Source: Minisyncoccota bacterium (GTDB lineage Bacteria; Patescibacteriota; Minisyncoccia; Phycocordibacterales; UBA6065). From it: 64,000 bases of DNA. A program made the position numbers and the translations under genes. Positions 33,591 through 56,937 of the stretch are shown one piece after another; position 1 is the first letter of the stretch, and each line of letters begins with the position of its first letter. The notes under the pieces were generated by a model that saw only the letters and a list, made by a program, of their open reading frames with translations, had not been told where the DNA came from and ran no database searches. Where the stretch lies: the NCBI GenBank assembly GCA_035546035.1, contig DASZXC010000001.1:19538-83537 (forward strand), written 5' to 3'.

Positions 33591-35384
33591 CTAGCTCAAC
33601 ACCGCTTTGATGCGGCGGACACCCGCAGAAACTGCTTCTTCTTTCTGGATCTTGAACGTGCCGAGCTCTTTGGTGTTCATGACGTGCGGACCGCCGCAGA
33701 ATTCCTTGGAATATGCGCCCGCGAGATCGTCGCCGATGTAATAGACAGACACGACATCGCCGTATTTGTCGCCGAAGAAATGATATGCGCCCGTCTTGAG
33801 AGCTTCCTCTTTTGGAAGCTCTACCTTATTGACCGGGAGCGCTGCCTTGATTTTTGCATTCACGATGTCTTCAACGCGCTTTTTCTCGTCATCGGTCATC
33901 TTCGCCGTATGGGTAAAGTCGAAACGCAAACGTTCAGGCGTGATATTCGAACCCTTCTGCATAACATGGTCGCCAAGCACTTCGTGGAGCGCCTTGTGGA
34001 GCAAATGGGTCGCCGTGTGATAGCGGAGCGACATATCGGATGTGTCGCCGAGACCGCCTTTGAATTTCTGCTCCGCGCCGGCGCGGGAGAGGTCTTGGTG
34101 CTTTTTGAATTCGATCTCGTAAGCGCCGCGGTCTACGACGAGGTCCTTGCCCCGCGCAAGCTCGATGGTCATGTCTATAGGAAATCCATAGCTCGAAAAG
34201 AGCGTGAATGCGTCGGTAGCGGTTACTTTTCCTGTCTTAGCAAGCTTTTCGAATTCTTTAACGCCCTGATCGAGAGTCTTCGCGAACTTATCAGCCTCTT
34301 TCGATATCTCATCGATGATCGTTGCCTCGCCCGATTCGATATTCGGATAGAAAGCGCTGAACTGCTCGACGAGGATGCCGATCAGCGTCTCGACGGACGA
34401 TCGGTCGAGCTTCTTGGCATCGGTATTGAATACCATGCGGCGAATGATGCGGCGCAGAACATAGCCCTGATCGGTATTCGCAGGGACGACCCCGTCGGCG
34501 ATCATGAATGTCGCGGTACGGATGTGGTCTGAAATGATGCGCTGGCGACGGATATCGCCTGCCAACGTTTTTGCGATAGCCATGATAGGCGCGAATATAT
34601 CGGTCTCGAACACATTCGATTTCTTCTGGAGCACCGTACAGACGCGCTCGAAGCCCGAACCCGTATCCACGTTCTTTTTGGCGAGCCTGCCGACGATCTT
34701 TCCGTCCTTTTTCTCGTACTCCATGAATACGTCGTTCCAGATCTCGACGACTTTCTGCGCTTCGTCGGCGGCGTCATATTGTTCAGGCGTCAGATCGCCC
34801 AATCCTTCGGGAGTAAGGTCATAGAACATCTCGGAGCACGGGCCGGTCGGGCCGGTCCACGTGTCTTTGCCCGGTTCTTTACTCTTGACCGCGGGCCACC
34901 AGTTCGCCGATGCGCCCTTGAAATAGATGCGATGCTTTGGCATGCCGACCGATTCCCAGATACGCGCAGCCTCGTCGTCGCGCGGGGCATTCTCATCGCC
35001 GGCGAATACTGTCACGTAGAGGCGCTTCGGGTCGAGACCGAATCCTTCGGTTTTCGACGTGAGCAATTCATAGCTCCATGCGATCGCCTCTTCCTTGAAA
35101 TACGAGCCGAGCGACCAGTTGCCCATCATCTCGAAGAACGTCAGGTGCGTATTGTCGCCGATATCGTCTATATCGCCCGTGCGGACGCATTTTTGAAAAT
35201 CAGCGAGCCTGTCGCCCTGCGGGTGCGCCCTGCCCATGAGATACGGGACCAAAGGCTGCATGCCCGCGGTATTGAAAAGCACCGTCGGGTCGTTTTCAGG
35301 CACGAGAGAGGCCGAAGGTATGATGGCATGCCCCCTCTTTTCGAAAAAGGCCAGGAATCGTTTGCGGACTTCGGCTGATGTCAT
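33591..35384 (-). CDS. alaS: Alanyl-tRNA synthetase, short form (catalytic and editing domains, no C-Ala domain)
   Basis: FTNAGM-like block, RTGDIDDIGDNTHLTFFEMMGNWSLG and the editing HTATHLLH...CGGPHV motifs. At 597 aa it is far shorter than the usual ~870 aa. Confidence 0.85.
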   Translation of the reverse strand: MTSAEVRKRFLAFFEKRGHAIIPSASLVPENDPTVLFNTAGMQPLVPYLMGRAHPQGDRLADFQKCVRTGDIDDIGDNTHLTFFEMMGNWSLGSYFKEEAIAWSYELLTSKTEGFGLDPKRLYVTVFAGDENAPRDDEAARIWESVGMPKHRIYFKGASANWWPAVKSKEPGKDTWTGPTGPCSEMFYDLTPEGLGDLTPEQYDAADEAQKVVEIWNDVFMEYEKKDGKIVGRLAKKNVDTGSGFERVCTVLQKKSNVFETDIFAPIMAIAKTLAGDIRRQRIISDHIRTATFMIADGVVPANTDQGYVLRRIIRRMVFNTDAKKLDRSSVETLIGILVEQFSAFYPNIESGEATIIDEISKEADKFAKTLDQGVKEFEKLAKTGKVTATDAFTLFSSYGFPIDMTIELARGKDLVVDRGAYEIEFKKHQDLSRAGAEQKFKGGLGDTSDMSLRYHTATHLLHKALHEVLGDHVMQKGSNITPERLRFDFTHTAKMTDDEKKRVEDIVNAKIKAALPVNKVELPKEEALKTGAYHFFGDKYGDVVSVYYIGDDLAGAYSKEFCGGPHVMNTKELGTFKIQKEEAVSAGVRRIKAVLS

Positions 35385-42909: not shown

Positions 42910-44223
42910 CTATACGGGAAGATTGTGAGGAGCGTCCGCGCGCTTCGACGGTATGCGATGGAGGCCCGGCGTCTTGACCGCGCTTCCGGGGAAATGATAG
43001 AGAGTGGCAAGCTCTTCGGTGTTAAGGATCATCGGCTTCTGTTTCGGGAATTCGGCGCCCGTATACGGCGGATGAAAGAACGATCGCGCGCAATACATGT
43101 CGAATATGCCCTTTTTCCATTCCGCGAGCTTTTTCCCGTCCTTGTCCTGCCATGGATACGGGAATTCAGCGGCCATCGGCATGAGTCCGTTCAGGTTGTT
43201 CGACCCGAACGGGCGGAACGAGCCTTTGATGATGCCTACGGACAGGCCGCCGCGGCCTTTCGGGATGACGTTTATGCCGCGCACGCCGACGTCGAGGCCG
43301 TATTTGCCGATCGACCGCTCGATCGCCTTGACCGCCTCCTTCTGGGATTCGGTGAGGCGCTCCATATGCACGACCTTCTTGCCGTCCTTCTCTTCGGTGA
43401 CGTCCTTGGCGATCTTGGCGATCTCTTCTTTCGCCGCGACGATCCACGGATCAGGCTGCCGCTTGTTGAAATGGTTCTTCTCGGCCACGTGCGCCCGGGC
43501 GATGAACTGGAACCACACCTGGTCTTCTTTTTTGATCGAAGCCATGACTTCGATGAGGGCCGCGAGAGGATCGACCTTAAACTCCTCTTTCGGATCGTCT
43601 GAGAGGCCGTAATCCACGTACGTCTTTATCGGGTACGGATCAGGCTTGGTCGCCTTGTATTCGCAGCAGTATATGTCGTATTTGTCGAGATTGAGGGCGA
43701 CCTTTTCGGTATAATCCTCGACCTCATGGATGGCGACGTCGGGATACGAGGCGTATATATTGGCCACGAGGAAATTCTTCTGGCCGTCGAAGCACCAGAT
43801 AAAGAACCTGATCTCCCCGTCTATCGAGCAGAGCTCGAGCGAGCACCACGGACGAGCCTTGCCTTCCCAATATCGCTCGATGACCGTTCCCTCGCCGCCG
43901 GTCTGGATGAGGGAATTCAACACGAGCTCCATAGCGGCAGGAGACTTGTACGTCTCCTGCGGAAGCTTGATCTCGAGCACGGTCTTCTTCTGCTTGAGCA
44001 CCCAGGCGAGACGCACATAGGCGACCCAGACATTCCAGGCGTATTCGATGAGGAGCGCAGGCACCCAGAAGACGGCGAAATACGCAACCCATCGGAACGT
44101 CTCCGGAAGAGCGGTCTGAAGCGTAAAATCGAGAAGGGACTGATAGATAGTCACCTCTGGATTATAACAGAAAAGACAGCTTCCTCGAAAAGTCCGCGTC
44201 GCGCGCGGAGAGCCCTTTCTCAA
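42910..44223 (-). CDS. Hypothetical protein (about 437 aa) with an N-terminal hydrophobic segment
   Basis: Long GC3-rich ORF with a possible TM near the N-terminus and no motif recognised. The start codon is uncertain. Confidence 0.4.
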   Translation of the reverse strand: MRKGSPRATRTFRGSCLFCYNPEVTIYQSLLDFTLQTALPETFRWVAYFAVFWVPALLIEYAWNVWVAYVRLAWVLKQKKTVLEIKLPQETYKSPAAMELVLNSLIQTGGEGTVIERYWEGKARPWCSLELCSIDGEIRFFIWCFDGQKNFLVANIYASYPDVAIHEVEDYTEKVALNLDKYDIYCCEYKATKPDPYPIKTYVDYGLSDDPKEEFKVDPLAALIEVMASIKKEDQVWFQFIARAHVAEKNHFNKRQPDPWIVAAKEEIAKIAKDVTEEKDGKKVVHMERLTESQKEAVKAIERSIGKYGLDVGVRGINVIPKGRGGLSVGIIKGSFRPFGSNNLNGLMPMAAEFPYPWQDKDGKKLAEWKKGIFDMYCARSFFHPPYTGAEFPKQKPMILNTEELATLYHFPGSAVKTPGLHRIPSKRADAPHNLPV

Positions 44224-44240: not shown

Positions 44241-45317
44241 CTAAGCTACCGCTGAATACCTGCCCTCCTTATCCTTCTTGAAATACTTCGGGTTCTGGAG
44301 ATTCACAAGGATCGTATTCTCCTTCACGTACCGCTCCTTCATGACCTTCTCGACGATCTCTTTTTTAGTGAGGGGACCGTTCTTGTCTATGATCTTCTTG
44401 ATGACATCCTTCACCACACCCGACATATAGCCCCATTCAGAGAGCGCGTAGAGCCCGCGGCCGACGAGGACGAAGCGAGGGTCCTTGATAAGCTCGTTGT
44501 GAGTGGTCGCGACATGAGCCTTCTTGTCGAACATCTTTTCGATCTGCTTCGCCACCTCGCGAAAGTGAATCGGCGAGCCGTGCTTCCTGATCACGAGAAA
44601 CGCGTAATCGCGCATGCCCTTTGCCTTGATGTTCGGAGAGTGAGATACGCCCCATTCGCCGAGAGGGTTCTTGCCCACCTTTTTAGAGAGAGAAAGCCAT
44701 CGCTTGAGGATCTCTTCGTTCCGGTACTGGTCGTTGAGACCTTCGATGTGGTTGAGGAAGGTGTCGATCATCTCCGATTCGGGGATGATGTCGTCATCTT
44801 TGAGGTTCTTGTAGAGCTTCTTGAGGGCATCTTCGACTTTCTTCGAAGTATCCTCGTCTACATGCCATCGGTGCTTGAAATGGTCGTCCTCTTTCTGCCA
44901 CTTGAACGCGCGGCCGAGCACGAGGAGGAAATATATATGGTTCTGGATAGAGGCGTCCTTGGAAACAGAATCGAGAAGGTCCTCTTCGGCCATGACGCCG
45001 CCCAATTCCCGCATCATGCCTTCGAGCTCCTTGAAAGCCGCGGCCTGGGCTTCGTATTCCTTCGATTTCTGGATGTTCGAGATAGCGTAGTTCTCGATCT
45101 GCCGGACACGCTCGCGGGTGATGCCGTATGTCTTGCCTATGGCCTCGAGCGTCATCTTCTTGGCGTCCTTGCCGAGGCCGTAGCGCTTCACGATGACCTC
45201 CTGGGCGCGGTCAGGGAGGCTCTTGAGGAGCGCTTTGACGACCTGCTTTGGCTTGAGGGTGAGGCTCGTGGTCATAATCGTTACTTTGTTTGTATCATTG
45301 GTTTGATAGTAAGTCAA
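44241..45317 (-). CDS. Sigma-70 region 4 (HTH) domain protein fused to an unknown C-terminal domain of about 270 aa
   Basis: The N-terminal LPDRAQEVIVKRYGLGKDAKKMTLEAIGKTYGITRERVRQIENYAISNIQ fits sigma-70 region 4 / LuxR-like HTH. No regions 2 or 3 are detectable. Confidence 0.55.
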   Translation of the reverse strand: MTYYQTNDTNKVTIMTTSLTLKPKQVVKALLKSLPDRAQEVIVKRYGLGKDAKKMTLEAIGKTYGITRERVRQIENYAISNIQKSKEYEAQAAAFKELEGMMRELGGVMAEEDLLDSVSKDASIQNHIYFLLVLGRAFKWQKEDDHFKHRWHVDEDTSKKVEDALKKLYKNLKDDDIIPESEMIDTFLNHIEGLNDQYRNEEILKRWLSLSKKVGKNPLGEWGVSHSPNIKAKGMRDYAFLVIRKHGSPIHFREVAKQIEKMFDKKAHVATTHNELIKDPRFVLVGRGLYALSEWGYMSGVVKDVIKKIIDKNGPLTKKEIVEKVMKERYVKENTILVNLQNPKYFKKDKEGRYSAVA

Positions 45318-45362: not shown

Positions 45363-48203
45363 CTACTTAACGACGATCGACACAAGCTTGTCCTGAACGA
45401 CGATCACCTTCTCCGGCTTCTTGTCCCCTACCCATTTCTTCACGTCGTCGAGAGCGAGAGCGGCCTTTTCGAGCGCGGCCTTTTCGGCGCCGCGCGGCGC
45501 AACGAAATCACCGCGCACCTTGCCATTCACCTGGACGACGATCTTCGCCGATTCGTCGGCGATCTTTGATTCGTCGGCGACAGGCCACGGCGCGACATTG
45601 ACCAATTTTCTATTGCCGAGATCCGCCCATAATTCATCGGCGACATGGGGAGCGAACGGAGCAAGGAGCCTGACGAATATGCCGAAATCGTCAGCCGAAA
45701 GGGCCGGCTCTTTTTCAAGCGCATTCAAGAGGATCATGAGGGACGAGACGGCCGTGTTGAATCCCATGGCTTCGATATCGGTAGAGACCTTTTTAACGGT
45801 CTTATGGAGGAGCGTCTCGGCTTCCCTTGAAACCTTCGCGCCCTTGGTTATTTTTTCGGCGAGAGCGTATGCTCTTTCGACGAATCGGCGCGGTCCGATG
45901 ATGCTCTTGGTGTCCCACGCGATGGCCTGATCGAAGGGCCCCATGAACATCTCATAGAGGCGGAGCGAATCGGCGCCATAGGTCGCCACGAGGTCGTCAG
46001 GATTGACGACGTTACCGAGCGATTTGGACATTTTGACGCCTCCTTCGGCGAGTATGAGGCCGTGCGACGTGCGCTTCATGTACGGCTCGTCCGTATTTAC
46101 CGCCCCGATGTCGAAAAGGAATTTATGCCAGAAGCGCGAATACAAGAGATGCAGCGTCGTGTGCTCCATGCCGCCGTTATACCAATCTACGGGCGCCCAA
46201 TACGCGATCTTGTCCTGCGCGGCGAATGCTTCTTTATTCTTCGGATCTATATAGCGGAGATAGTACCAAGAAGAACCTGCCCAATTTGGCATTGTATCGG
46301 TCTCTCGGCGCGCAGGGCCTTTGCATTTCGGGCATGTGACGCTCACCCAGTCCGTAATGACGGAAAGCGGAGATTCGCCCGTATCGGTCGGCTCGTATTT
46401 TTTCACCTTGGGCAATTCGACGGGCAAGTCTTTTTCAGGAACGGGAACCCAGCCGCACGATTCGCAATGGATCATCGGTATAGGCTCGCCCCAGTAGCGC
46501 TGGCGCGAGAATATCCAGTCGCGGAGCTTGTACTTCACGACCCAAGCGCCGCCCACGGCTTCAGTGATCTTCTTGCGGGCTTCAACGGATTCCATGTCAT
46601 CGAAATCATTGGAATTGAAAAGGATACCGTCATCGGCATAGACATAGTCATCGTTATCAAGGATATTCAAGATGAAATCGCCCTCGAATACGGTGAAGAA
46701 ATTCTTGAGCTCGTTTCTCTTCTTCCAGACGACCTCGTGGAGAGCAGACTCTCTTTCATCGACGGCCGCGCGTTCGTCATTCTCCAGATCGAAGAATACG
46801 AAACTGAAATGAGCGTGGCGATTTTGCTTTTTGACGCGGTGATAGAAGAACGTGTTTATCTTTATATCCGACGTCCTCATGTGCTTTAGGTTTTTGTAGC
46901 CAGTCTCTTCGAGGACCTCGCGGCGGGCCGCTTCGACGAGGTCTTCGCCTTTTTCCACGCCGCCTGTGAAGAGGCCGTGCATATGGATTCCCTTCCAGCT
47001 ATTGCAGAGGTACGTGCCGTCCTCCGGATTTCGCACGACGATACAAACCGCGTCGCGCTTTACGAACGGCAAATCGGGCCTAATCGCTCCTTCGCCGGAG
47101 AGACCTTTGAATGCAGGCTCGATGACGCGACGGATCGGCAATCCGAACTTCTTGGCGAACGCATGGTCGCGCTCGTCGTGGGCAGGTACGGCCATGACCG
47201 CGCCAGTTCCATACGTCGCGAGCACGTAATCGGAAATGAATACGGGAATCTCTTCGCCATTCGCCGGATTTATCGCCACAACACCATCGAGCTTTACGCC
47301 GGTCTTTTCTTTCTGGGCGTCGGTGCGGGCGATCTCGTCCATTTTCTTGGCAGCCGAAACGTATCTTTCGACTTCCGTCTTGTTTTTATATGAAAGCCTG
47401 GAAACAAGCTCATGCTCCGGCGCCAGAACGAGGTATGTCACGCCGAAGAGCGTGTCGGGACGGGTCGTAAACACGCGGACTTTTTCATTCGCGCCTTTGA
47501 CTGCGAAATCAAGCTCCGCGCCTTCGCTCCGGCCGATCCAATTCCTCTGCTGGATCTTTATCTTCTCCAGATAATCTACTTTGCCGAGGTCGTCATAGAG
47601 CCTGTCGGCGTATTTAGTGATAGCGAGCATCCATTGCTCTTTGACGCGCTTCTCCACCGGAGTACCGCAGCGCTCGCAGCAGCCGTTCACGACTTCCTCG
47701 TTCGCCAGTCCGATCTTGTCCTTGGGACACCAGTTGATCTCGGTCTTGGCTTTGTATGCGAGGCCCTTTTTATACATCTCTATGAATATCCACTGGGTCC
47801 AGCGGAAATACGCCGGATCGCTCGTATTCACTTCGCGCGACCAATCGAACGATAGGCCGAGGGATTTGAGCTGCCTTCGGAAGTTATCGGTATTCTCTTC
47901 CGTCACATCCTTCGGCTGGCGGCCGGTCTTGATGGCGTAGTTTTCCGTAGGCAGTCCGAAAGCGTCCCAGCCTATGGGATACAAGACGTTCTCGCCCTGC
48001 ATGCGGCGCTTCCTCGCGACGATATCCATCGCGGTGTAGCTCCTGATATGGCCGGTATGGAGGCCAGAACCCGACGGGAACGGAAATTCGACGAGAGGAT
48101 AGAATTTCTTCTTCGCGCTCTTATCGTCCGCCTCGTATATGCCCCGCTTCTCCCACTCTTTCTGCCACTTCTTCTCTATTTTCGAGTGATCGTACTTTTT
48201 CAT
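45363..48203 (-). CDS. leuS: Leucyl-tRNA synthetase with a Nudix hydrolase domain embedded in the CP1/editing region
   Basis: HIGH region (PSGSGLHTGHIRSY), editing-site blocks TTRPDT and GAVMAVPAHDERD, KMSKS (VKMSKSLGN), and a Nudix box GGVEKGEDLVEAARREVLEETGY (Gx5Ex7REUxEExGU) at about aa 414-436; 946 aa. Confidence 0.9.
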   Translation of the reverse strand: MKKYDHSKIEKKWQKEWEKRGIYEADDKSAKKKFYPLVEFPFPSGSGLHTGHIRSYTAMDIVARKRRMQGENVLYPIGWDAFGLPTENYAIKTGRQPKDVTEENTDNFRRQLKSLGLSFDWSREVNTSDPAYFRWTQWIFIEMYKKGLAYKAKTEINWCPKDKIGLANEEVVNGCCERCGTPVEKRVKEQWMLAITKYADRLYDDLGKVDYLEKIKIQQRNWIGRSEGAELDFAVKGANEKVRVFTTRPDTLFGVTYLVLAPEHELVSRLSYKNKTEVERYVSAAKKMDEIARTDAQKEKTGVKLDGVVAINPANGEEIPVFISDYVLATYGTGAVMAVPAHDERDHAFAKKFGLPIRRVIEPAFKGLSGEGAIRPDLPFVKRDAVCIVVRNPEDGTYLCNSWKGIHMHGLFTGGVEKGEDLVEAARREVLEETGYKNLKHMRTSDIKINTFFYHRVKKQNRHAHFSFVFFDLENDERAAVDERESALHEVVWKKRNELKNFFTVFEGDFILNILDNDDYVYADDGILFNSNDFDDMESVEARKKITEAVGGAWVVKYKLRDWIFSRQRYWGEPIPMIHCESCGWVPVPEKDLPVELPKVKKYEPTDTGESPLSVITDWVSVTCPKCKGPARRETDTMPNWAGSSWYYLRYIDPKNKEAFAAQDKIAYWAPVDWYNGGMEHTTLHLLYSRFWHKFLFDIGAVNTDEPYMKRTSHGLILAEGGVKMSKSLGNVVNPDDLVATYGADSLRLYEMFMGPFDQAIAWDTKSIIGPRRFVERAYALAEKITKGAKVSREAETLLHKTVKKVSTDIEAMGFNTAVSSLMILLNALEKEPALSADDFGIFVRLLAPFAPHVADELWADLGNRKLVNVAPWPVADESKIADESAKIVVQVNGKVRGDFVAPRGAEKAALEKAALALDDVKKWVGDKKPEKVIVVQDKLVSIVVK

Positions 48204-48206
48204 CTG

Positions 48207-49163
48207 CTAGATAGCGCCCTTCGCCCTCACCGGATAGAGGTCGGGATCGATGTTTCGGTCGAAACAGGCCGTGCCCATGCCGTGCGCCCAGTTATTAGAG
48301 CCGGAAGCCGCGGCCGACATGCCGTAATCGGCCGCGTATTTATTTATGCTCGCGGCGCCGGATTTAAGGTTGAAGTCGGCGCAGACCTTGAACGACACCG
48401 CGCCGGTCTTCTGATATCCGTATGCCGTGCCCGTTTCAGGGTCGACAGGGACCATGAAGCTCGATATCGGGTCGTTGAGGCTCGCGATATCGGTCGGCAA
48501 CGCTCCCTTCTGCTGCCAGTAATTGACGATCTGCCACTGGATCGACGTGAGGTCGTTCACGCGCCTTTCGTCGAAGCGCGCGGCACGAGCCTGCATCGGC
48601 GAGCCGACGAGCACGAAGCCGGTCACGAGAGATCCGAAGACGAGGAGCGACGCCAGGGATATGATGAGAAGCGTCTTCTTCGGAGCGTCGGCGGCGAAGG
48701 TCTTCTTGAGGTCATAAAAGTAATAGCTGAAGACCGCCCCGGAAACCACGAGCACGGAGACGATCTTCCAGATGAAGCGCGACGTGATCTCGCCTCCGAG
48801 GAACGTGTTCACGAGAACGACCAGATCTATGACAACCGCAACGCCCGTGATGAAGAGCGTCAGATATGTAAGCCACTTCCTCACCGCGATGTCCTTCTTC
48901 TCAGGATTAGCGCGGACGTACTTGTCTATATAAGACGCGATGACGAGATAGAGCGGGAATACGATGAGAAGGCATGCGATTGCCGCGCGGATCGGGCCGG
49001 AATAGAAATCAGTCGCGTAATAATAGGAATTGAGCATATCCGGGAACGCGCGGTTGATGATGGCGAAGAGGAGGCTGACGAGCGATACGACGCTCACATA
49101 GAGACCCGCGAAGCTCGCGAGATATATGAAGAAATCCTTGGCTGTGGTTTTGTTTGGCATATG
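48207..49163 (-). CDS. Hypothetical membrane protein (4-5 TM helices plus a C-terminal extracytoplasmic domain)
   Basis: Start set at MPNKTTAKDFF, because the longer ORF would run through the upstream terminator and the DUF378 gene. Confidence 0.45.
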   Translation of the reverse strand, partial: HMPNKTTAKDFFIYLASFAGLYVSVVSLVSLLFAIINRAFPDMLNSYYYATDFYSGPIRAAIACLLIVFPLYLVIASYIDKYVRANPEKKDIAVRKWLTYLTLFITGVAVVIDLVVLVNTFLGGEITSRFIWKIVSVLVVSGAVFSYYFYDLKKTFAADAPKKTLLIISLASLLVFGSLVTGFVLVGSPMQARAARFDERRVNDLTSIQWQIVNYWQQKGALPTDIASLNDPISSFMVPVDPETGTAYGYQKTGAVSFKVCADFNLKSGAASINKYAADYGMSAAASGSNNWAHGMGTACFDRNIDPDLYPVRAKGAI

Positions 49164-49185
49164 CTCAATGATAATGAACCGGGCA

Positions 49186-49212
49186 TGAAAAAGCCAGGCT
49201 GCAGAGCCTGGC
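49186..49212 (-). terminator. Intrinsic terminator after the DUF378 gene
   Basis: agccaggct-ctgc-agcctggct flanked by an A-tract and a T-tract. Confidence 0.6.
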
Positions 49213-49219
49213 TTTTTCG

Positions 49220-49444
49220 CTACATCGTCGCAGGAGCCGACGACGACATGCATGCCTTGCAGTCCTTCTTGTGGGTGAAGAGGACGAGAAGGCCGGAGAG
49301 GCCTACAAGTATGTAGACGATCTTCTCAACGGCAGGCCAGCTGCCGAGGATCATGTTCACGAGGTTCCATCCGAGCGCGGTCAAGCCCCAGTTTACGGCG
49401 CCGACGACGACGAGGATGAAGGCGATCATGTGAAGTGCTTTCAT
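49220..49444 (-). CDS. DUF378-family small integral membrane protein
   Basis: AFILVVVGAVNWGLTALGWNLV matches the DUF378 GAxNWGLxG motif; 74 aa with 2 TM helices. Confidence 0.6.
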   Translation of the reverse strand: MKALHMIAFILVVVGAVNWGLTALGWNLVNMILGSWPAVEKIVYILVGLSGLLVLFTHKKDCKACMSSSAPATM

Positions 49445-53604: not shown

Positions 53605-53609
53605 TTCTG

Positions 53610-53680
53610 TGGACCTACGGGGAATCGAACCCCGCACTCATCCATGCCATGGATGCGTATTACCGATATACTATAGGCCC
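53610..53680 (-). tRNA. tRNA-Ala (anticodon GGC)
   Basis: The minus strand folds as a cloverleaf: acceptor GGGCCUA/UAGGUCC with a G3:U70 pair (the Ala identity element), anticodon loop AUGGCAU, T-loop UUCGAUU. No encoded CCA. Confidence 0.85.
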
Positions 53681-56848: not shown

Positions 56849-56921
56849 GGGCCCGTAGCTCAGTTGGTAGAGCAGCGCTTTTGCAAAGCGAAGGTCAGGA
56901 GTTCGAATCTCCTCGGGTCCA
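56849..56921 (+). tRNA. tRNA-Ala (anticodon UGC)
   Basis: GGGCCCGUAGCUCAGUUGGUAGAGC... has a G3:U70 pair, anticodon loop UUUGCAA and a TPsiC arm with GGAGUUCGAAUCUCC; 73 nt. No encoded CCA. Confidence 0.9.
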
Positions 56922-56937
56922 CAGCATCTCTTCCGTA

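Follow-up and report, generated by a model that had tools for sequence, protein, structure and literature searches.

A Nudix hydrolase domain inserted into the editing domain of leucyl-tRNA synthetase in Patescibacteria, exchanged as a cassette and shared with a prolyl-tRNA synthetase

The stretch of DNA analyzed here (64,000 nucleotides of contig DASZXC010000001.1 from a Minisyncoccota bacterium, hereinafter the window) carries on its minus strand a leuS gene (45363..48203) coding for a leucyl-tRNA synthetase (LeuRS) of 946 amino acids (aa) plus the stop codon, in whose CP1 editing domain we found a complete Nudix hydrolase domain. The gene is a single uninterrupted open reading frame (ORF). 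Its product scores 990.4 bits against the NCBIfam model for bacterial LeuRS (TIGR00396, leuS_bact; cut-off 548.4), the match coming in two stretches, and recovers Thermus thermophilus LeuRS (1h3n) with E = 5.3e-220 in phmmer. The N-terminal half of the catalytic Rossmann core (aa 1-219, 47547..48203; Pfam tRNA-synt_1, aa 12-216) bears the HIGH motif in the form HTGH (aa 49-52, 48048-48059) and is followed by the first part of the CP1 editing domain (aa 220-361, 47121..47546; PF13603, aa 220-364) with the T-rich motif TTRPDT (aa 246-251, 47451-47468), GTG (aa 332-334, 47202-47210), and AHDERD (aa 341-346, 47166-47183). Beyond the insert lie the remainder of CP1 (aa 521-557, 46533..46643; residue 521 onward corresponding to T. 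thermophilus residue 376 onward), the second half of the catalytic core as delimited by alignment to the T. thermophilus enzyme (aa 558-793, 45825..46532), with RDWIFSRQR (46497-46523) and KMSKS (aa 724-728, 46020-46034), and the anticodon-binding and C-terminal tRNA-binding domains (aa 794-946, 45366..45824; PF08264, aa 794-907; T. thermophilus 637-877), all on the minus strand.

The window enzyme is colinear throughout with the LeuRS of T. thermophilus (1H3N/2BYT) and Escherichia coli (4AQ7), keeping HIGH, KMSKS, the T-rich region, GTG, and the aspartate of AHDxRD. In an alignment of 94 homologs, both the residues of the HIGH and KMSKS motifs (H49, G51, H52, K724, S726, K727) and those of the editing site (T246, T247, R248, D250, T251, G332, G334, H342, D343, R345, D346) are invariant. 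In the CP1 segment past the insert, G526, S531, F534, and S539 are conserved. Unlike the two reference enzymes, which have a leucine-specific domain before KMSKS, the window LeuRS is devoid of it (residues 721 to 724 span T. thermophilus 581 to 637, the missing part being 582-636); this is lineage variation with no bearing on TIGR00396 membership. The full-length AF2 (AlphaFold2) model has a predicted local distance difference test (pLDDT) score of 90.4 and a predicted template modeling (pTM) score of 0.80, with no segment below a pLDDT of 50. The LeuRS part of the protein should act canonically.

Relative to T. thermophilus LeuRS, residues 1-363 correspond to 1-364 and residues 521-721 to 376-581, and an enzyme domain of ~157 aa takes the place of an 11-residue CP1 loop (T. 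thermophilus 365-375). The Pfam editing-domain profile tRNA-synt_1_2 ends early at aa 364 (profile position 143 of 185), and the distance from the AHD to the RDW motif is 220 aa as against 58 in an insert-free ortholog (P0084), which gives an extra length of ~157-160 aa rather than the ~140 aa of a preliminary description of this DNA. The module comprises aa 362-520 (46644..47120, minus strand) and equals a whole free-standing Nudix gene of ~160 aa, aligning with free-standing relatives (42-47% identical) from first residue to last; the interval 46640-47070 proposed earlier does cover aa 379-521, but the homologous region starts upstream of it, at aa 362 (nucleotide 47120). The Pfam NUDIX profile (PF00293) matches aa 382-499 with E = 5.8e-15 and 55.9 bits (cut-off 21.1), and the box GX5EX7REUXEEXGU is present as GGVEKGEDLVEAARREVLEETGY (aa 414-436, 46896..46964), as had been read from the letters alone; it forms the predicted metal-binding catalytic helix. 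It is followed by a segment of family-specific conserved positions (46725..46847), predicted to include substrate-binding residues and possibly a general base, comprising the X-loop F453-Y454-H455 (46839-46847), K458/N461/R462 (46818-46832), and E485/H489/W493 (46725-46751). Predicted in isolation, the module has a mean pLDDT of 83.9 and a pTM of 0.79; within the full-length model its region scores 89-96, with junctions predicted at high confidence, and in Foldseek searches it was matched at probability 1.0 to Nudix enzymes of solved structure, numbering in the hundreds. Hence, by profile, box, and α/β/α fold, the gene product is a member of the Nudix superfamily (PF00293), and the structural models predict that the module folds as a domain of its own in a CP1 surface loop, leaving the aminoacylation and editing sites intact. 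The core of the preliminary description, namely a complete Nudix domain with a discrete fold, flanked on both sides by the editing domain within one uninterrupted ORF, is thus borne out.

Neither sequence nor fold comparisons yielded a close characterized Nudix family. The RppH model (NF001938) gave 22.8 bits on the window protein, below its cut-off of 116, and Ap4A hydrolases in the PDB match the module only at E = 3e-4 to 1.5e-3. RppH/NudH, the Ap4A hydrolases (NUDT2, 1JKN, 1KT9), the Ndx1 Ap6A hydrolase, Rv2985, and DIPP1 are 15-20% identical to it, while an uncharacterized Enterococcus faecalis MutT/nudix protein (2AZW), at 19-20% identity, is free-standing and has no synthetase link. In comparison to the RppH/Ap4A-type enzymes, the module family has its own invariant set of residues (R383, K458, N461, R462, W493). 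The module is akin to inteins in being self-contained and in-frame in a conserved essential gene, in its patchy, non-tree-like spread, and in being cleanly missing from close relatives. However, we reject an intein identity: inteins have Cys/Ser/Thr at the N-terminal junction and His-Asn plus a nucleophile at the C-terminal one, whereas the junctions here (...RRVIE/PAFKG... and ...NDDY/VYADDG..., the slash marking the boundary) lack splice residues, there is no Hint/intein Pfam match, and, unlike inteins, the module is a conserved hydrolase predicted to remain in the mature protein. An aminoacyl-tRNA synthetase joined to an unrelated enzyme domain is also typified by NCBIfam NF040702 (isoleucine--tRNA ligase, N-acetyltransferase domain-containing), which matched the window protein in its synthetase part only; compared to that enzyme, the extra domain of the window LeuRS is a Nudix domain in the middle of the editing domain, exchanged as a cassette, found at multiple sites, and common to prolyl-tRNA synthetase (ProRS).

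Because the LeuRS sets used below were collected by searching for sequences similar to the query or the module, their counts show a wide spread and give no true frequency. A precomputed NUDIX domain is present in 119 of the 120 best database matches to the window LeuRS (53-82% identity), whose submitter names include Paceibacterota, Taylorbacteria, Nomurabacteria, Parcubacteria, and Patescibacteria. In species-representative genomes we found at least 216 module relatives; of the 80 loci kept, 69 lie inside LeuRS ORFs and 11 are free-standing genes (160-255 aa). When mapped on the insert-free ortholog, an insert occupies the window's site in 186 of 189 related LeuRS from Patescibacteria (Paceibacteria/Parcubacteria). 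The block is therefore a Nudix domain conserved across the clade and not a LeuRS-specific insertion of another kind. These data also bear on whether the fusion might be an assembly chimera or a frameshifted neighboring gene, for which one could point to two related contigs (L001 and L002) with leuS in pieces. On those contigs, fragmentation affects every gene, a sign of noisy assemblies, and even there the Nudix domain keeps its place in leuS. Moreover, the window ORF is intact, its junctions are modeled at high confidence, and the same uninterrupted fusion recurs in more than 180 independent assemblies, which excludes chance and misassembly; we give an artifact practically no credence.

Outside the insert, P0084 is 74.5% identical to the window LeuRS, with a 6-residue loop (GESLVE) where the module would be. 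Its locus (L085) is fully syntenic with the window (DUF378, DUF5671, leuS, sigma70_r4/HARE-HTH, DUF8128), and no relocated copy of the module was found within 8 kb of the gene; LeuRS can therefore be retained when the module is lost. The neighbors of leuS in the window are likewise on the minus strand: directly downstream is a gene for a 358-aa Sigma70 region 4 + HARE-HTH protein (44241-45317), at the same position as in L001 and L085, and then a 437-aa ORF with no Pfam match (42910-44223), whose syntenic counterparts in those two contigs are recorded as DUF8128; directly upstream are two membrane-protein genes, DUF5671 (48207-49253) and DUF378 (49220-49444), ordered as in L085. We found no support for a recent foreign origin of the module in this genome. 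Its GC content at third codon positions (GC3) is 0.667 as against 0.69-0.71 in the flanks, its dip in overall GC being an amino-acid-composition effect (GC2 = 0.225), and a search for flanking repeats or target-site duplications around it recovered nothing beyond short matches such as chance would produce. The host-like GC3 and the absence of flanking repeats imply that the module is not a recent arrival. The 64-kb window has no further copies of it, and its alanyl- and glutamyl-tRNA synthetases (AlaRS, GluRS) carry no extra domains. As a separate observation, this AlaRS (33591-35384, minus strand; 597 aa, tRNA-synt_2c + tRNA_SAD) is far shorter than typical bacterial AlaRS, its C-terminal region being apparently missing, and two tRNA-Ala genes (53609-53680, minus strand, and 56849-56922, plus strand; anticodons GGC and TGC) are the sole Rfam and ARAGORN matches in the window.

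Conservation within the module is pronounced. Among 111 LeuRS inserts, G414, G415, E429, E432, E433, and G435 are 100% conserved, R428 is kept in 94% and E420 in 91%. Over 222 modules from all contexts, K458, N461, and W493 are each present in 221, R383 in 220, R462 and E485 each in 211, and H489 in 198, while position 454, which in the window module lies 18 residues past the end of the box, is always aromatic (Y 144, F 70, W 6). The ratio of nonsynonymous to synonymous substitution rates (dN/dS), computed for the window against its close relatives L005 and L007, is 0.07-0.08 for the module and 0.10-0.17 for the LeuRS backbone, and the AHD-to-RDW distance is 216-221 aa in nearly all homologs. 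The low dN/dS marks purifying selection on the module, and together with the residue conservation and the fixed anchor spacing it speaks for an enzyme domain that is competent for catalysis and under structural constraint. Two box types can be told apart, the canonical E...RE and a Q...[A/M/T]E type that is found at all insertion sites and makes up most of the free-standing copies. The latter, with its E-to-Q and R-to-A changes in one subfamily, together with the existence of Nudix domains without enzyme activity (PMC5389931) and of multiple copies per protein that could form Nudix-Nudix pairs, could suggest a sensor or structural domain, in which nucleotide binding regulates LeuRS or mediates oligomerization without hydrolysis. 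However, the window's subfamily, which is of the canonical type, keeps the full box in 83 of 84 modules, and the glutamates E429, E432, and E433 are invariant in all inserts, the variant class included. A non-catalytic role is thus unlikely for the window's subfamily, and we consider this explanation highly improbable; the earlier suggestion of a decoy domain is similarly disfavored by the strict conservation of the catalytic residues.

The window's loop is only one of several points at which related LeuRS accept modules: further insertion sites correspond to P0084 positions ~208, 235-255, 420, 468, and 625. Other domains at such sites include α/β-hydrolases (19 cases, two with DUF559), complete Ham1/ITPase modules (7 cases; E = 1.8e-59), and HAD domains (4 cases), the HAD insert occupying a separate site ~70-80 aa past RDW and not the Nudix loop. 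Three additional kinds of insert, of 115-135 aa, have no Pfam match (L007, aa 597-731, recurring at the same site in three proteins; L062, aa 247-378; P0125, aa 680-794). A related LeuRS may have 1-3 Nudix copies at up to three sites and up to five inserted modules in all (L031, L050, P0057, P0062, P0104, and others), one such open frame being 1735 aa long (L031). Recent internal duplication is rejected as the source of the multi-copy proteins, since Nudix copies sharing a polypeptide have only 29-42% identity to one another; between species, by contrast, a site-A and a site-B copy can reach 72-74% identity. Indeed, the identity of site-B modules is almost uncorrelated with that of their backbones (Spearman 0.11 over 16,471 pairs). 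For example, P0118 and P0123 are 90-98% identical in the flanks on both sides of a module that is 25-50% identical, with sharp boundaries; backbones of 86-91% identity carry modules of 32-34% identity, and the reverse case also occurs. The window protein itself has 78% backbone and 39% module identity with P0013, as opposed to 58% and 73%, respectively, with P0106. These sequence comparisons indicate that the module is replaced as a cassette between near-identical LeuRS backbones.

Such exchange raises the question of a selfish in-frame cassette, one that persists mainly through its residence in an essential gene, is spread by recombination, and benefits the host little. The decoupling of module from backbone identity, the several sites with 2-3 copies per LeuRS, an apparent crossing of the family between bacteria and archaea, and the DUF559 endonuclease-like domain in some neighboring inserts would all fit it. 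On the other side, the low dN/dS and invariant catalytic residues imply that the enzymatic function itself is under selection, the window copy is host-like in GC3 and free of flanking repeats, intein splice residues are absent from the junctions, and most modules come without an endonuclease, making this explanation very unlikely.

Searching 1.84 billion representatives with a profile of the module recovered 104 clusters at E <= 1e-30 and 328 at E <= 1e-10; among the best 150 of the 328, 101 are LeuRS-hosted and 37 free-standing, and most of the others are LeuRS fragments. In one locus (L037), a free-standing module gene stops 3 nucleotides upstream of the start of an insert-free leuS, and in another (L029), it stops 4 nucleotides upstream of a leuS that also has its own insert. 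The neighborhoods of the free-standing copies are otherwise heterogeneous, with no conserved partner except leuS (these two loci) and HAD. The latter is seen with the free-standing P0006 (Staskawiczbacteria), which in each of two independent contigs (L003 4400-5486; L004 58-1144) follows a HAD hydrolase gene at a distance of 4 bp; we reject a conserved Nudix-HAD pairing, as this HAD is not specifically related to the one inserted in the LeuRS P0104. In a further contig (L038 2399-2848), a free-standing Nudix module gene is preceded, at a distance of 129 bp, by an ORF resembling LAGLIDADG homing endonucleases.

The profile also recovered the module in a second synthetase: a ProRS (tRNA-synt_2b, HGTP_anticodon, ProRS-C_1) and four related clusters host it between the anticodon-binding and C-terminal domains (proteins P0273 and P0279-P0282; loci L086 5593-7524 and L087 3720-5744). 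These ProRS modules match the hidden Markov model (HMM) of the module with E = 1e-42 to 3e-58 and are 38-49% identical to the LeuRS modules. Insert-free relatives of these ProRS are many (~480 aa) and named Nanoarchaeota, Woesearchaeota, or Nanoarchaeia; from these names and a compatible gene context, the hosts are probably DPANN archaea. In L087, a MazG gene and an unrelated 140-aa NUDIX gene are also found near the ProRS-Nudix gene. This generic NUDIX gene gave no match to the module HMM, which indicates that the model is family-specific. The module thus appears to represent a narrow Nudix family tied to aminoacyl-tRNA synthetase genes in ultra-small symbionts.

As the most likely mechanism, we propose Mg2+-dependent hydrolysis of a pyrophosphate bond through the Nudix-box glutamates E429, E432, and E433. 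In this scheme, R383, K404, K458, and R462 would, as basic residues, bind the polyphosphate chain, and stacking of the base would fall to the aromatic X-loop (F453/Y454; for the role of the X-loop in Nudix enzymes, see PMC5389931). The most likely substrates would be dinucleoside or nucleoside polyphosphates (Ap3A, Ap4A, Ap4N, and similar), which synthetases produce as side products of the aminoacyl-adenylate; the module would then be a built-in clean-up or turnover activity for synthetase-made polyphosphates. A substrate of the diadenosine polyphosphate (ApnA) type is favored because synthetases are established sources of Ap3-5N (PMC7705103), because the module family is linked to two synthetases and to leuS by adjacency, and because an aromatic X-loop residue at +17/18 is an ApnA marker, a tyrosine ~17 aa downstream of the box having been described as such for ApnA hydrolases (Dunn et al., 1999, as cited in PMC5389931), with polyphosphate-chain enzymes prominent among the characterized structural neighbors. 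Each of these points is weak singly, and against membership of the ApnA subgroup stand the below-cut-off score with the RppH model and the weak matches to the Ap4A hydrolases; the assignment is hence our best guess. Among the functional suggestions of the preliminary description (Ap4A, a misactivated adenylate, or an alarmone as substrate, or a regulatory or decoy role), the evidence mildly favors the Ap4A-type idea. Taken as a whole, the explanation that combines a working LeuRS with a Nudix pyrophosphohydrolase from an exchanged, synthetase-linked family, with ApnA-type compounds as the likeliest substrates, is the best we can offer, and we put its chances at about even.

Its main rival is that the module is a generic house-cleaning enzyme that sanitizes or salvages aberrant (deoxy)nucleoside triphosphates or nucleoside diphosphates linked to another moiety (NDP-X), has no mechanistic tie to aminoacylation, and rides in LeuRS merely for co-expression in a tiny, regulator-poor genome. 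Consistent with this, other small-molecule hydrolases (Ham1/ITPase, HAD, α/β-hydrolase) occupy permissive LeuRS sites, free-standing copies adjoin a HAD gene or PurL, MazG and another NUDIX gene lie near one ProRS-Nudix locus, NudI-type NTPases are among the top fold matches, and the module can be lost from LeuRS. Nevertheless, the only hosts seen in the best 150 of the 328 clusters are LeuRS and ProRS, to which the leuS adjacency is to be added; the window's AlaRS and GluRS have nothing extra, the tightly fixed insert length suggests a constrained geometry and not a loose passenger, and the HAD domain found in LeuRS has no specific relation to the HAD encoded beside a free-standing copy. We regard this rival as a serious one that is nonetheless somewhat improbable, its element of mere co-expression included.

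A different possibility is suggested by the host domain: the module might act on the termini of tRNA-Leu presented by the CCA-end-binding editing domain, as a repair or decapping enzyme whose candidate targets would be a 5' triphosphate, a cap (Np4 or NAD), or a pyrophosphate that a toxin has attached to the 3' end, the turnover of modules then reflecting phage or toxin conflict. Yet direct evidence of RNA binding is lacking, free-standing copies exist without a tRNA-binding partner, the ProRS insert lies outside any editing domain, the Ham1 modules are unsuited to an RNA-end role, and the literature searched holds no precedent for a Nudix enzyme acting on pyrophosphorylated CCA ends. We consider this reading unlikely, in both its proposed activity and its targets.

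Full-text literature searches recovered no paper on a LeuRS-Nudix architecture, in line with the preliminary description, which knew of none. To our knowledge, neither the architecture and its spread nor the cassette exchange or the ProRS counterpart has been reported before, although the proteins themselves and automatic domain matches to them are already public. An NCBI protein that is 100% identical to the window LeuRS (P0009) is titled 'MAG TPA: class I tRNA ligase family protein [Candidatus Paceibacterota bacterium]'; automated annotation demotes such proteins to 'class I tRNA ligase family protein', and their bifunctionality is thereby hidden. Beyond what the single gene had disclosed, the module is clade-wide, multi-site, cassette-swapped, and also present in ProRS.

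Aminoacyl-tRNA synthetases are among the most conserved enzymes, and the domains they have acquired have time and again led to new biology. In the present case, across a large and uncultured lineage of bacteria, the proofreading domain of an essential synthetase houses another enzyme that is apparently active, and the clean cassette swaps between near-identical LeuRS backbones represent an unusual domain-level exchange within an essential gene. The adjacency to leuS and the recurrence in an archaeal-type ProRS offer a testable link between aminoacylation and the turnover of nucleotide polyphosphates (or tRNA-end chemistry) in minimal genomes. More tentatively, and with the balance of probability against it, LeuRS in bacteria of the candidate phyla radiation (CPR) and ProRS in DPANN archaea may serve as docking platforms for exchanged hydrolase cassettes drawn from a pool of Nudix domains above all, but also Ham1, HAD, α/β-hydrolase, and unknown modules. 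In this view, the function of the Nudix enzyme would be linked to tRNA ends or to the reaction of the synthetase, and its rapid cassette turnover would be driven by selection, for which phage or toxin conflict and adaptation to host-derived nucleotide pools are candidates. If true, this would constitute a previously unrecognized translation-linked system of nucleotide or tRNA surveillance in ultra-small symbionts.

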